In this document: positions 18,660 through 21,865 of the stretch, piece by piece
Layout of the letters: every line of letters starts with the position of its first letter
Numbering within the stretch: position 1 is the first letter of the stretch
Assembly (NCBI RefSeq): GCF_049554935.1
Contig: NZ_CP186926.1
Location: 1 to 64,000 of the forward strand
Origin: Methanocaldococcus indicus
GTDB lineage: Archaea > AGJL01 > Methanococci > Methanococcales > Methanocaldococcaceae
Reading direction: 5' to 3'
DNA length: 64,000 bases
Notes under the pieces: generated by a model
Told to the model about the DNA's origin: nothing
What the model saw: the letters and a program-made list of their open reading frames with translations, nothing else
The model's database searches: none
Position numbers and translations under genes: made by a program

Positions 18660-18817
18660 AAATGAAAAAATGTTTTAGCTGTGGAACTTACACTTTAAAA
18701 GATATTTGTCCAAAATGTGGAGAAAAAACATCTATTGTTAAGCCACCAAAATTTTCCTTAGAAGATAGATGGGGAAAATACAGAAGAATGTTAAAAAAAG
18801 CTAAAAAAAGTTTTTAG
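18656..18817 (+). CDS. nop10: H/ACA RNP protein Nop10
   Basis: Not in ORF track; [48 protein letters not shown], ATGA overlap with the aIF2-alpha stop. Confidence 0.95.
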   Translation: [53 protein letters not shown]

Positions 18818-19803
18818 GTATCTATTATTGCAATATATATTTTACCTTCATATATTCCTGGTAAAATATTAGTCCCTAATACTACTTTTGTTGGGATATT
18901 TAAAGTCATATACCTATTAGAATCAGAGGGATTATAATAACTATATACAACATTATAATTATTTGTTAAATAAATCCAATTTTTATTATTTAAGTTTTCA
19001 GCCAATATTGCCATTTCATTTGTTCCTGGAGGAACATTAACTACAGATATATTATATAACCCATTACTCCAATAACTGTCTGTTTTTAGCTCTACATTCC
19101 AAGATACAGTATTATATATAGTAGTTATAGACAAGTTATTTTCTGATGAATTATTTAGCTTTACATTTCCATAGTTAATATATGAACAATTCAGAATTAT
19201 TCCCACATATGAATTCATAGTATAATTATTAGGGTCTTCGTAAATAACAGTTGTATTTTCATCTGAAACAGTTACATTAAATTTCCACATTGATACAGAA
19301 CCAGGAAAACCACCTGTAGATGCTGCAATACTACCAATTGTAAAATTAAATTTCCAAGTACCGGTAATTTTATTATAATCAGGCTTTTGTATTAATGAGA
19401 CGTTCCATTTTGCAATGTCATTATTATCTCCAAAATATTTTATTATTGTATCATTTTTAGGAATATATATAAATCTTATATGCTCTGAGCTGGATATACT
19501 ACTATTTACCCATACAGTATATGTAGGATAATAATAAATAGATAAATAATAAAAATCTACGGTTATATTTTTAATATCTTTAAGTCCATTTAAATCAGAT
19601 ACTGAAATCTCAAGAGTATATGTATTTGTAGGGGATAATGCTGACACACTATTTCCAGAGCTATCTAATAATTTTATACTTATATTTTCTGGAGGAAGAT
19701 TTATAATATTAATTTTTCCACTGATATTGTTAATATTAGATGCATAATTAGTTAATAGCAAAAAGAACAATACGTTTATTAAAAATATTTTATATATTTC
19801 CAT
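18814..19803 (-). CDS. Secreted beta-rich protein, paralog of 20933-21865 (putative minor filament subunit)
   Basis: Signal peptide, shared GKIN...LDS-GN...L-PTNTYT...DLN-LKD block, C-terminus PGIYEGKIYIAI, many N-x-S/T sequons. Confidence 0.65.
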   Translation of the reverse strand: MEIYKIFLINVLFFLLLTNYASNINNISGKINIINLPPENISIKLLDSSGNSVSALSPTNTYTLEISVSDLNGLKDIKNITVDFYYLSIYYYPTYTVWVNSSISSSEHIRFIYIPKNDTIIKYFGDNNDIAKWNVSLIQKPDYNKITGTWKFNFTIGSIAASTGGFPGSVSMWKFNVTVSDENTTVIYEDPNNYTMNSYVGIILNCSYINYGNVKLNNSSENNLSITTIYNTVSWNVELKTDSYWSNGLYNISVVNVPPGTNEMAILAENLNNKNWIYLTNNYNVVYSYYNPSDSNRYMTLNIPTKVVLGTNILPGIYEGKIYIAIIDT

Positions 19804-19808
19804 TTTTA

Positions 19809-20918
19809 TCACCTTAGATTAAATAATTCTTTGATTATTTCTAAAATTCCTTTAAACACACTTTCAATAATTTTAGTAATGTTGCTGAATACATTAAAGG
19901 ATGTTTCATTTTTATTACTGTTTTCATTAATTGTTCCATAATTAACATCAATTTTTGGAGTTGAAGTATATAATCTATCTTTTGAATAGAGTTCTAATTG
20001 AAAAGAGTAGATACCATTTGAGAAGTTATTTGGGATATAGTTATATTTGTATTCATACTTACCAATTGGTAGCTGGTATATATTTGCAATATCAATTTTA
20101 TCAATTAATTTCTTATTTTTATATACATTTAGTACTAATTTAACATTATCAAGAGGTTTATACATGTTATCAATTAATGAATATATATAGAAATATTTGA
20201 TACTTCTACTACTATTTATTGGGACTACTTTAAATATTGGTATGCTTACAGTATTAACAATTAAAATAACAGTTTTATTTTCATAAGGTTTTACTGTAAA
20301 TTTTGTTTCATTGAGAATATTTCCTAACAAAATAGCTTTAGTAAGGTATTCTCCAGGAACTACTTTCTTTTTTAGTATTCCAGTATCATTTGTAGCAATT
20401 AATTGATTATCTTTATTATATAGTAATATTTTACAAGCTACATTATTCCCATTTTTATCTTTAGTATATATACTTACATAGGAATACTCTCCAAGTACAT
20501 TTACTTTAATATTAGTTCCTGCAGCTGGTAAAATAATAGTTCCTTTACGATTTTCTGTAGTTTTATATGCTTCTCCAACAATCTGAACGATATATTTGCC
20601 TGGAACACAATCATTATCTACTTTTATAGTAATATATACACTTTTTCCTTCTTTTGGTTTTAATGTAAAATTATTTTCAGAAAATAGAACATGTATTTTG
20701 TTAGTTTCAGGTTTTATGTAGTATTCCATGTGGATATTTATTGGGCTATCTGATGGATTATAAAATCTAATATATCCACCAGACACATCTCCACCAGCAG
20801 GAATCTCAAAAGATGAACTTAAGATATTTCCTGTTATACCTATACCTTCACCATAAATACAACAAATAAAAATAGAAATAACAAAAAAAATAAAAAAAGT
20901 TTTTTTCAAAGAAATCAC
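19809..20918 (-). CDS. Secreted Ig-fold protein resembling pilus chaperone / DUF916-type assembly proteins
   Basis: Signal peptide; IRFYNPSD...FTLKPKEGKSVYITIKV...PGKY pattern; amphipathic C-terminal helix. Confidence 0.55.
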   Translation of the reverse strand: MISLKKTFFIFFVISIFICCIYGEGIGITGNILSSSFEIPAGGDVSGGYIRFYNPSDSPINIHMEYYIKPETNKIHVLFSENNFTLKPKEGKSVYITIKVDNDCVPGKYIVQIVGEAYKTTENRKGTIILPAAGTNIKVNVLGEYSYVSIYTKDKNGNNVACKILLYNKDNQLIATNDTGILKKKVVPGEYLTKAILLGNILNETKFTVKPYENKTVILIVNTVSIPIFKVVPINSSRSIKYFYIYSLIDNMYKPLDNVKLVLNVYKNKKLIDKIDIANIYQLPIGKYEYKYNYIPNNFSNGIYSFQLELYSKDRLYTSTPKIDVNYGTINENSNKNETSFNVFSNITKIIESVFKGILEIIKELFNLR

Positions 20919-20932
20919 CTTAATTATTCTAA

Positions 20933-21865
20933 TTATTGTGGTGAAATCATTACGTATATTTCTCCTGTATATGTTCCTCTAATTGGAGCTCCTCCTAAGT
21001 ATAGCATAACTGGACTACTAAATATTTCTCCAAATTCACTTGTAGGACCATTTTCAGATATCCAAGTGTTATATATATTGTATGTAATTGGCTTACCTGC
21101 TATTTCTAAGTAGAAAGTTTGTGGTCCTAAGTCATCTATACTATTAACAGCTGAGATTATTTCTCCATATTGGTTTGTCCAATTTTCATCAGTTTTTATT
21201 TGTAAGGTATAGTTACCATTTGATATTGCAGTTACTGATAAGTTCTTATCTGATGATTCATTAGTATCTGGTTTCATATCATTCCAAATTAATTCTTTTA
21301 CATTTGGAGATATTTCACCATACCACTCCATAATAATATTTTTGCTATCTTCTCCAGAAAGCCCTTCGTTGTCATATACATAAGCTTTAACTGTCCAAGG
21401 TCCTTCCATTGCTACTTTACCTACTGTAACATTAAATTCAATTGAACCTGTAGAGTGTCCATAGCTATAAATGTAATCTTCTTTACTTACAACAACATTC
21501 CATGTGCTATTGTCCCCCAAATAAGCTTCTAAAGTTTTTGTTGAGAAATTATAGACAAAATATATGTATTTACTGGAATCTGGTGTATTTGTTTGTGATG
21601 AGTTAGATTCAAATACTACAACTAATTTATCCAAATCTTTTAAACTATTTAAATCTGTGAATGTTAATTTTACAGTATAGGTATTGGTTGGATATAACTC
21701 TGTTGTTGGATTGCCATTACTATCTAATATCTCTAAGGTTACATTAGGAGCTATGTTGGATACATTAATCTTTCCAGTAACATTACCATTTTGTTGTGCA
21801 TAAACTCCTGAAAATAAAACTATAGATACTACCAAAGCTAAAAATATCTTACTGATACTTGACAT
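20933..21865 (-). CDS. Secreted beta-rich protein (putative major filament subunit)
   Basis: Signal peptide ending VYA, about 11 N-x-S/T sequons, C-terminus RGTYTGEIYVMI, no C-terminal membrane anchor. Confidence 0.65.
   Translation of the reverse strand: MSSISKIFLALVVSIVLFSGVYAQQNGNVTGKINVSNIAPNVTLEILDSNGNPTTELYPTNTYTVKLTFTDLNSLKDLDKLVVVFESNSSQTNTPDSSKYIYFVYNFSTKTLEAYLGDNSTWNVVVSKEDYIYSYGHSTGSIEFNVTVGKVAMEGPWTVKAYVYDNEGLSGEDSKNIIMEWYGEISPNVKELIWNDMKPDTNESSDKNLSVTAISNGNYTLQIKTDENWTNQYGEIISAVNSIDDLGPQTFYLEIAGKPITYNIYNTWISENGPTSEFGEIFSSPVMLYLGGAPIRGTYTGEIYVMISPQ

Follow-up and report, generated by a model that had tools for sequence, protein, structure and literature searches.

Three genes of Methanocaldococcus indicus form a candidate chaperone-assisted, usher-less operon for a donor-strand-exchange surface fibre

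Which kind of surface structure could be built by two paralogous pilin-like proteins whose genes flank that of a chaperone-like protein? The question is raised by a three-gene operon (g1, g2 and g3) of Methanocaldococcus indicus, situated within the window, which is the whole stretch of DNA that was analysed (64,000 nucleotides (nt), positions 1 to 64,000 of contig NZ_CP186926.1). An earlier interpretation made from the letters alone, here called the sequence-only reading, had proposed an undescribed surface filament or lattice whose subunits are assembled with the help of a chaperone and complete each other by a donated strand. On balance, the operon probably encodes a chaperone-assisted, usher-less, glycosylated surface fibre that is assembled by donor-strand exchange. 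The three genes are given below as they stand in the list of open reading frames (ORFs):

20933..21877, (-): g1, pilin-like subunit, 314 amino acids from the first start
19809..20918, (-): g2, chaperone-like protein, 369 amino acids
18814..19812, (-): g3, second pilin-like subunit and paralog of g1, 332 amino acids

As had been read from the sequence, the genes are co-oriented, closely spaced (a gap of 14 nt between g1 and g2, an overlap of 4 nt between g2 and g3) and placed among housekeeping genes. The database copy of g1 (P0001) begins at Met5, which corresponds to position 21865 and is where the sequence-only reading let the operon end; the residue numbers of g1 features follow the numbering of P0001. 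The database copy of g2 begins at residue 4 of the listed ORF, and so does the stored copy of g3 (P0003, 329 amino acids, beginning with MEIYK) in its own ORF.

The two subunits are full-length paralogs (BLASTP: 32% identity, E 1e-31), and all three proteins start with a strongly hydrophobic segment. In g1 and g3, strongly hydrophobic 19-residue windows are confined to the N-terminus. One additional window is present in g2 at residues 216-217, which form a beta strand in its model. By the same measure a C-terminal transmembrane segment is absent from g1, g2 and g3, and the C-terminus of g2 is an amphipathic helix. When inspected by eye, a cleavage-type site (VYA/QQ, NYA/SN) comes after the hydrophobic core of the N-termini, and a class III cleavage motif of the [KR]G type was not seen before the hydrophobic stretch. 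No pilin-like N-terminal helix is left in the mature part of the g1 model. The number of N-x-S/T sequons amounts to 11 in g1, 8 in g2 and 15 in g3, with means of 5.4, 4.6 and 8.4 in 1000 shuffles. The observed count was reached by a fraction of 0.009 (g1), 0.074 (g2) and 0.010 (g3) of the shuffled sequences, and the enrichment is therefore real in g1 and g3 and marginal in g2. The sequence-level claims made beforehand have thus held up: the paralogy, the presence of more than ten sequons in each subunit, the lack of a C-terminal membrane anchor in g1 and g3, the lack of a class III motif, the amphipathic helix of g2 and the quoted motifs (VTGKINV/ISGKINI, GTYTGEIYVMI/GIYEGKIYIAI and FTLKPKE...PGKY).

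The AlphaFold2 (AF2) model of g1 has a predicted local distance difference test score (pLDDT) of 92.7 and a predicted template modelling score (pTM) of 0.83. The signal helix (5-17) is followed by an Ig-like domain D1 (41-180), a strand at 183-187 (WYGEI) and a beta domain D2, which closes with the strand 303-309. No regular DSSP strand is found in mature residues 24-40 of this monomer model. In the model of g2 (pLDDT 85.9, pTM 0.62), a signal helix and an N-terminal strand (27-30) precede three beta-sandwich domains (36-142, 146-220 and 224-327), after which a disordered linker leads to a helix at 343-368. The first of these domains (D1 of g2) is PapD-like in its fold by structure comparison and terminates in a long hairpin (107-120 / 127-142).

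The top Foldseek match of g1 is a donor-strand-complemented CfaB-CfaB fusion (3f84_A, E 2.8e-6), and the list also holds CfaE-CfaB, FimH and SafDAA. For g2, the WxLIP of E. faecium appears at ranks 6 and 8 (9i25_C and 9i1y_B, E about 1e-7). In the ESM Atlas, the nearest neighbours of g1 are unnamed archaeal, Chloroflexota and viral-labelled clusters (cosine 0.97, template modelling score (TM-score) 0.76-0.81). Clusters bearing SCPU and WxL were found at TM-scores of 0.50-0.57, a cluster with WxL in 23% of its members was found at cosine 0.77 and TM-score 0.57, and for g2 the DUF916-type clusters lie at TM-scores of 0.3-0.4. These Atlas likenesses are leads only. The resemblance to CS1/CFA pilins, SCPU and WxL proteins that had been claimed from the sequence survives in part, as a weak structural or language-model likeness that is not detectable by HMMER.

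The pairing of the chaperone-like protein with its putative substrate was predicted in a complex job made up of g2 (24-330) and, as the partner, g1 (24-310) in two copies; every chain was supplied with the alignment of its family. The g2:g1 pair obtained an interaction prediction score from aligned errors (ipSAE) of 0.74 (0.74, 0.76 and 0.72 in three runs), and the best control reached 0.01. This mark is attained by 58/80 solved complexes and by 2/110 mismatched pairs. At least 92% of the contacts are common to the three runs, and the pLDDT of the partner is at least 85. The segments concerned, together with the corresponding elements of g3, are the following:

21746..21796, (-): mature N-terminal extension of g1, QQNGNVTGKINVSNIAP (P0001 24-40), candidate donor strand
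21305..21328, (-): linker strand of g1, EWYGEISP (P0001 180-187), most conserved motif of the family
20939..20959, (-): C-terminal strand of g1, IYVMISP (P0001 303-309), end of the conserved GTYxGxIY motif and predicted edge of the acceptor groove
20817..20849, (-): mature N-terminal strand of g2, EGIGITGNILS (residues 24-34), at the chaperone A1-strand position
20511..20549, (-): residues 124-136 of g2, RKGTIILPAAGTN, opening half of the long strand that closes D1
19815..19892, (-): C-terminal amphipathic helix of g2 (residues 343-368)
19687..19737, (-): mature N-terminal extension of g3, SNINNISGKINIINLPP, candidate donor strand
18826..18858, (-): C-terminal strand motif of g3, GIYEGKIYIAI

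In the predicted complex, residues 129-135 of g2 (ILPAAGT) pair with residues 303-308 of g1 (IYVMIS) at an expected error of about 1 Å. Because the register of this pairing rises, the g2 strand and g1's C-terminal strand are parallel. Residues 27-29 of g2 pair in antiparallel fashion with 184-182 of g1, i.e. with the WYGEI strand, and the N-terminal interface of g2 comprises residues 24-31 and 33-34. The contacts of g2 are hence made by the first and last strands of its PapD-like domain. In Caf1M-type chaperones, these two positions belong to the A1 and G1 strands; the segment 124-136, at the G1 donor-strand position, has a conserved family consensus (GAAGQTA). The N-terminal extension of g1 (24-40) lies outside the g2 interface. 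Overall, the predicted g2:g1 arrangement is the topology of chaperone donor-strand complementation, in which g2 is predicted to fill a groove whose lining is formed by the pilin family's two most conserved motifs. The segment NIKVNV of g2 (137-142) was also considered as a mimic of the pilin strand and was ruled out, as the predicted contacts use 124-136.

The N-terminal strands themselves follow a common pattern. A signal-like segment combined with a strand of the [VILA][ST]G[KNSQT][IFVL] type occurs only in g1 (VTGKINV), g3 (ISGKINI) and g2 (ITGNILS) among the 2031 stop-to-stop ORFs of at least 100 amino acids in the whole genome. Because these same three proteins served as the template of the pattern, the scan shows specificity and not discovery. 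At the key position of the strand, g1, g2 and g3 have Ile, and every other locus (Chloroflexota-type) has Phe.

To what families do these proteins belong? Neither Pfam nor NCBIfam gave a match above cut-off for g1, g2 or g3, and nothing meaningful came up among PDB chains when their sequences were searched with g1, g2 and the family profile. Word-index searches with g1 or g2 alone returned only the query itself. Since relatives were found by the profile search and through g2 homologs, this reflects a limit of the index and not orphan status. When the g1+g3 profile was run exhaustively with HMMER, it yielded 231 cluster representatives at E<=1e-3 and 69 at E<=1e-10, most of which are 300-370 amino acids long and match from end to end. 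In the family consensus, the signal peptide is followed by [ST]-G-x-F-x-x-G-N-x-A-P (motif [ST]-G-x-F/I-x-x-G-N), the interior holds M-x-W-Y-G-E-I and the C-terminus G-T-Y-x-G-x-I-Y-x-x-I. No Pfam family is common to more than one of 54 aligned members. In the 157-sequence family tree, g1 and g3 are sisters (support 0.91), and the relatives of their clade are P0127, P0070, P0140 and P0072. As g1 and g3 are each other's closest sequences in this tree, their duplication postdates the split from all sampled relatives.

Neither the g1 protein nor the profile of the 54-member family found a match in the 39 other Methanococcales genomes, 16 congeners included, so that a related system is absent from these genomes. 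The g1-like loci from species-representative genomes, seven in number, are all from Chloroflexota or Dehalococcoidia metagenome-assembled genomes (MAGs). A g2 homolog adjoins one to four g1-like genes in five of them (phmmer E 9.5e-44 to 1.5e-30), and the contigs of the remaining two end at the g1-like gene. The chaperone family is represented at no fewer than 100 metagenome loci. With the g2 family as the query, 80 loci were obtained from metagenomes, and wherever at least 1 kb of sequence was available upstream of the g2-like gene (67 of 67 loci), a same-strand g1-like gene has its end no more than 1 kb upstream of it. The surveyed gene neighbourhoods thus reveal a conserved pairing of the two families. 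Among the sampled Chloroflexota genomes, 3/301 carry g2-like genes (centre genome counted), with at most five g1-like matches per positive genome. One g2-like protein (P0155, 378 amino acids) bears the automatic metagenome source label 'type 1 fimbria pilin', which is the only name given by any source to either family.

The longer members of the g1 family are informative as to how its module is used. There are 34 family representatives of more than 420 amino acids, and in 32 of them the g1-like module is located at the extreme C-terminus. The Pfam domains in front of it are Laminin_G_3, DUF2341, Gly_rich_2, DUF11, VWA and PKD, next to Ice_binding-like domains, disaggregatase repeats and InlB-type repeats; 16 of these 34 show no recognisable domain before the module at E<=1e-4. 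DUF2341, Laminin_G_3, CBM96 or DUF5979 is found in four more long members, which come from the MAG loci. By this architecture, the long members look like tip adhesins. In most of them the profile match starts at 38-44 (N-x-A-P-x-V), just past the T-G-S-F-T-V strand, which is kept in P0053, P0113 and P0097. Because most long members omit it, the short N-terminal strand is separable from the fold and dispensable behind a payload.

The same strand recurs on a third type of gene. At 60 metagenome loci, an ORF of at least 150 amino acids is present on the same strand downstream of the g2-like gene. Most of the complete ORFs among these begin with a signal peptide, have x-x-[ST]-G-S-F-T-V at the mature N-terminus and finish with a C-terminal transmembrane helix plus basic tail, and the domain make-up of these transmembrane-anchored ORFs is unrelated to that of the subunits. 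Weak fn3 and/or CARDB matches were found in the four downstream ORFs that were scanned. Examples of this third gene are found at L009:9427-10863, L005:4415-5896 and L008:8134-9375, and in metagenomes at e.g. L065 and L088. The downstream gene is likely the base anchor or terminator of the assembly. The window version differs from its relatives in that two short paralogs flank the chaperone gene; the archaeal operon is reduced to a minimum, with neither tip nor anchor, and its chaperone has lost its transmembrane helix.

From these elements the following mechanism can be proposed. The g1 and g3 proteins would be exported via Sec, their signal peptides would be cut off, and the proteins would probably be N-glycosylated. 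In the mature subunit, a complete Ig-like domain would then stand between a free N-terminal extension (VTGKINV / ISGKINI) and a C-terminal domain, whose groove is presumably lined by WYGEI and the C-terminal GTYxGxIY strand. This groove is predicted to be capped by g2, with the G1-like strand 129-135 parallel to the last strand of the subunit and the N-terminal strand of g2 placed against WYGEI. Subsequently, the N-terminal extension of the next subunit may displace g2 and complete the fold, and the outcome would be a linear, non-covalent polymer. This polymerisation of g1 and g3 is suggested by analogy with the chaperone-usher, WxL/Elr and Pam pili, and glycosylation as well as retention of g2 and the fibre on the cell are likewise inferred. 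The Chloroflexota relatives add adhesin-type subunits with lectin, VWA or carbohydrate-binding module (CBM) payloads before the g1-like module, and a transmembrane-anchored fn3/CARDB protein with the same N-terminal strand, which is probably the base anchor. The archaeal g2 may act on the surface of the membrane or within the space that the S-layer covers.

Several points weigh against such a fibre. The counts of solved and mismatched complexes at the ipSAE mark are only roughly valid for a job with its own alignments and three chains, and the passing of this mark by g2:g1 may partly reflect memory of the solved chaperone-subunit fold class. For the second copy of g1, no g1:g1 contact is listed in the one three-chain job, a result that is silent as to whether the subunits bind one another. 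The TM-scores of g1 to CfaB and FimH are low (0.33-0.36) and stand among generic tandem-Ig matches. The structural match lists for g1 are filled by D1, a generic V-set-like Ig domain, and do not bear on the fold class of the acceptor domain D2. With HMMER, g1, g2 and g3 have no match to WxL, SCPU, PapD_N or WxLIP. Where its homologs have the transmembrane helix, the helix of the window g2 is amphipathic and contains Glu and Lys, and neither an anchor gene nor an adhesin-type subunit was detected in the window operon by the ORF list and the strand-pattern scan. Of the chaperone-assisted donor-strand assembly that had been put forward from the sequence, the chaperone part has gained from the pilin/chaperone synteny, the PapD-like first domain of g2, the predicted g2:g1 complex and the position of the N-terminal segment of g1 outside the fold, and the exchange between subunits is proposed by analogy with known pili.

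The alternative that survives best, although an unlikely one, is a static surface complex, in which g2, as scaffold or anchor, would hold g1 and g3 as monomers at the cell surface by the same strand insertion, and no fibre is formed. The predicted g2:g1 complex and the synteny fit such a complex equally well, and the absence of a listed subunit-subunit contact fits it too. All of the aligned g2 homologs (16/16) are membrane-anchored, ending in a hydrophobic transmembrane helix and a basic tail. A static platform has moreover been published for WxL/WxLIP (accessible part of PMC10599100) and was the model of WxL clusters before 2026. However, this analogous platform model was revised to a pilus by cryo-electron microscopy and biochemistry, according to the accessible part of a 2026 preprint (10.64898/2026.10.17.759780). 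A static complex would furthermore leave the free, conserved N-terminal strand without a role, does not account for the same strand on transmembrane-anchored neighbours of unrelated domain make-up, and would have to be anchored by a g2 that in the window has no transmembrane helix.

Another alternative is a two-dimensional glycoprotein lattice or sheath of g1 and g3, resembling an S-layer and carried by g2 as a SlaB-like stalk that oligomerises via its C-terminal helix; a lattice as such was also allowed for by the sequence-only reading. SlaB consists of beta-sandwich domains followed by a C-terminal helix. The S-layer stalk SlaB of Sulfolobus acidocaldarius is indeed the top Foldseek match of g2 (8qox_B, E 2.9e-10), and g1 and g3 are rich in sequons. 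The query-normalised TM-score (TMq) of this match is just 0.22, however, and the predicted interface of g2 lies at the A1 and G1 positions of a PapD-like domain. The lectin and VWA payload members with their C-terminal module resemble fibre tips and not lattice units. The distribution, with 1/40 Methanococcales and 3/301 Chloroflexota genomes, is patchy and unlike that of a primary envelope layer. A lattice is therefore regarded as improbable.

The surroundings of the operon bear on whether it is an intact and functional unit. The neighbouring features are as follows:

17868-18659: aIF2-alpha-like gene, flank on the g3 side
about 18656-18813, (+): Nop10-like small ORF, converging on g3
21878..22047, no strand: divergent AT-rich intergenic region upstream of g1, with TATA-like runs and a perfect 23-nt palindrome
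22048-23067: DUF354-like gene, flank on the g1 side

Beyond the DUF354-like gene, an ABC ATPase gene and a Cbf5-like gene form a further housekeeping flank. The GC content of the operon region (0.22-0.31) is the same as that of its flanks. The same locus was found, contiguous and with ~97-99% identity, in contigs of two DNA runs (X2 and X3) from another study. The sole indel within the ORFs of these contigs is an in-frame 3-nt deletion at 19912, in the linker of g2 ahead of its C-terminal helix; outside the ORFs there are intergenic indels of 1-2 nt at 21888 and 22024, and all other differences are substitutions. Because the locus is contiguous and its ORFs are intact in these contigs, it is no assembly artefact and shows no visible decay. 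The least probable explanation, and a very doubtful one, is that g1 to g3 are secreted binding or matrix proteins without ordered assembly or a silent, horizontally acquired remnant: no RNA data were found, only one of 40 Methanococcales genomes has the cluster and the anchor of g2 has been lost, but all three ORFs are intact in the window as well as in the contigs of both runs (lone 3-nt in-frame indel), the GC content equals that of the flanks and the motifs of the predicted interface are conserved.

The DUF354-like neighbour was found in 15 of the 16 congeners, and eight congener regions around this gene were fetched, among which no clean empty-site comparison was found. In seven of the eight, the aIF2-alpha and Nop10 genes do not occur within 10 kb of the DUF354-like gene, and in the eighth they are separated from it by 4.3 kb of housekeeping genes. 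With no clean empty site, insertion and loss of the operon are not to be told apart from synteny. The region around the DUF354-like gene is rearranged between congeners. An insertion sequence (IS)-type transposase-like ORF (15033-15677, 214 amino acids) is present in the window, and a transposase-like copy with 84% protein identity lies ~6.6 kb from the DUF354-like gene in one congener (G014, L030:7656-8291).

A promoter function may be ascribed to the intergenic region 21878..22047 on the basis of its letters. Its palindrome (21896-21918) is 23 nt long and perfect, with 8-nt GC-rich arms around an AT core, and is situated about 20-40 nt upstream of the first start codon of g1. It occurs a single time in the window and in 0/100 shuffles, and could be an operator or a hairpin of the 5' untranslated region (5'-UTR). 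At the other end of the operon, the stop codon of g3 directly precedes two T7 runs on the g3 strand; the Nop10-like ORF, which converges on g3, falls under the 60-amino-acid limit of the ORF list. A Cys-rich ORF of 68 amino acids with several CxxC-like pairs (17639-17845) lies between the TyrA-like and aIF2-alpha-like genes.

What would a donor-strand fibre in this archaeon signify? Chaperone-guided, usher-less strand exchange was reported only in 2026, for Bacillota and for bacteria of the candidate phyla radiation (CPR), as far as the accessible parts of these reports extend. If the fibre proves true, this mode of fibre building would be far more widespread than domain searches reveal, it would span the bacterial-archaeal divide, and such systems would be recognisable by operon logic and fold instead of sequence. 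Two sizeable uncharacterised families, the pilins and the chaperones, would receive names. The compact three-gene system of a hyperthermophile-type genome is also suited to in vitro assembly work. It is proposed, tentatively, that the operon encodes the first archaeal chaperone-guided donor-strand fibre and belongs to a third single-membrane chaperone-pilin lineage, whose link to the others escapes detection by sequence and which is characterised by a two-domain pilin, a PapD-like chaperone and a transmembrane base anchor; the patchy sharing of this lineage between Chloroflexota and Archaea would probably be due to horizontal transfer. The archaellum, as described in the accessible part of PMC12488501, is a precedent of a surface machine transferred between these two groups. 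The methanogen chaperone, which has no anchor, may act in the S-layer-enclosed space in the way a Gram-negative chaperone acts in the periplasm.

The comparison with known systems may start with those that are more distant. The class III signal peptide of type IV pilins and archaellins was not seen by eye in g1, g2 and g3. [quoted passage not shown] In contrast, a PapD-like partner is strictly syntenic here, and the subunit has two domains in the g1 model and not a single TasA-like one. A weak Peptidase_M73 match (E 0.035) was found in 1/54 family members.

With the chaperone-usher pili, g2 shares the use of an A1-like and a G1-like strand, the latter parallel to the last strand of the subunit, and g1 shares its top Foldseek match, the CfaB-CfaB fusion. 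Here, however, there is neither an outer membrane nor an usher; the operon has no further gene beside g1-g3, and the usher family itself was not searched for. PF00345 (PapD_N) finds nothing in the genome, with a positive control in E. coli. The g2 family also differs in having no invariant Arg or Lys to grip the subunit C-terminus, in its two extra domains and, in the relatives, in its transmembrane anchor.

The Pam pili of CPR bacteria come closer. They are built from two-domain pilins with PapD/FimC-like chaperones that carry a transmembrane helix at the C-terminus, and a transmembrane-anchored FnIII protein is predicted to end and tether the fibre with its N-terminal strand (accessible part of PMC13278184). 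Likewise, the relatives of g2 combine a PapD-like chaperone with a transmembrane helix at its C-terminus, and the FnIII-transmembrane terminator matches the fn3/CARDB-transmembrane neighbour of the Chloroflexota loci. The donated strand, however, is the inter-domain linker in Pam pili, whereas the candidate here is a free N-terminal extension and the linker (WYGEI) is predicted to line the groove. The Pam architecture is hence matched by description at the level of the family, the window itself having neither the terminator nor the transmembrane helix of the chaperone. Pam pilins are reported to be exclusive to CPR bacteria, in the accessible part of the same source (PMC13278184).

The WxL/Elr pilus was described in 2026, in Enterococcus faecalis and other Bacillota, in the preprint cited above for the revised platform model (10.64898/2026.10.17.759780); the statements on it below rest on the accessible part of that preprint. 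It consists of WxL pilins with the donor strand at mature residues 1-15, a transmembrane-anchored DUF916/DUF3324 chaperone and an LPxTG base subunit. In its tip adhesins the WxL module is C-terminal (2,867/2,871), and tip-less operons are common. In ElrE/ElrD, the strand from the chaperone is placed in parallel with the subunit's C-terminal strand and leaves the N-terminal donor strand free, and the same complementation is seen in the g2:g1 prediction.

At the level of sequence the two systems are apart. PF13731 (WxL) has no HMMER match to g1 or g3 at E<=1 and finds nothing in the genome (control positive in Lactococcus), and WxL is not among the first 25 of the 50 families listed for the 54 family members (E<=0.01 and E<=1). 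The WxLIP domains PF06030 and PF11797 (DUF916 and DUF3324) leave g2 unmatched by HMMER, and each is matched, below threshold, by 1/17 g2-family members. A C-terminal transmembrane helix, present in 96.7% of WxL chaperones, is not found in the window g2. Further differences are the two domains of the subunit, the donor motif (G-x-F/I-x-V here, [S/T]-x-[G/A]-x-[V/I]-x-F in WxL), the three beta domains of g2 and the anchor, which in the relatives is a transmembrane protein and not an LPxTG/sortase substrate. The hosts differ as well: the Pfam-defined WxL system was encountered solely in Bacillota among 4,698 genera, and the present one occurs in Chloroflexota and an archaeon.

The novelty claimed from the sequence must be qualified accordingly. 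The sequence families are not the same, and the literature covered (the supplements of two 2026 preprints and subscription journals lying outside its scope) yielded no chaperone-pilin system of Archaea or Chloroflexota, but analogous systems of single-membrane organisms, WxL/Elr and Pam, were both described in 2026. Both the WxL/Elr and the present operons are usher-less and serve single-membrane organisms. Both include adhesin-type subunits with a variable N-terminal payload and a C-terminal pilin module (here 32/34), a multi-Ig chaperone, transmembrane-anchored here in the relatives, whose strand is oriented in parallel with the subunit's C-terminal strand, a base subunit that bears a donor strand (here in the relatives) and tip-less versions of the operon. 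Overall, the system is unrelated by HMMER to WxL, WxLIP and PapD_N, and at the family level it matches the logic of the WxL/Elr and Pam pili part for part.

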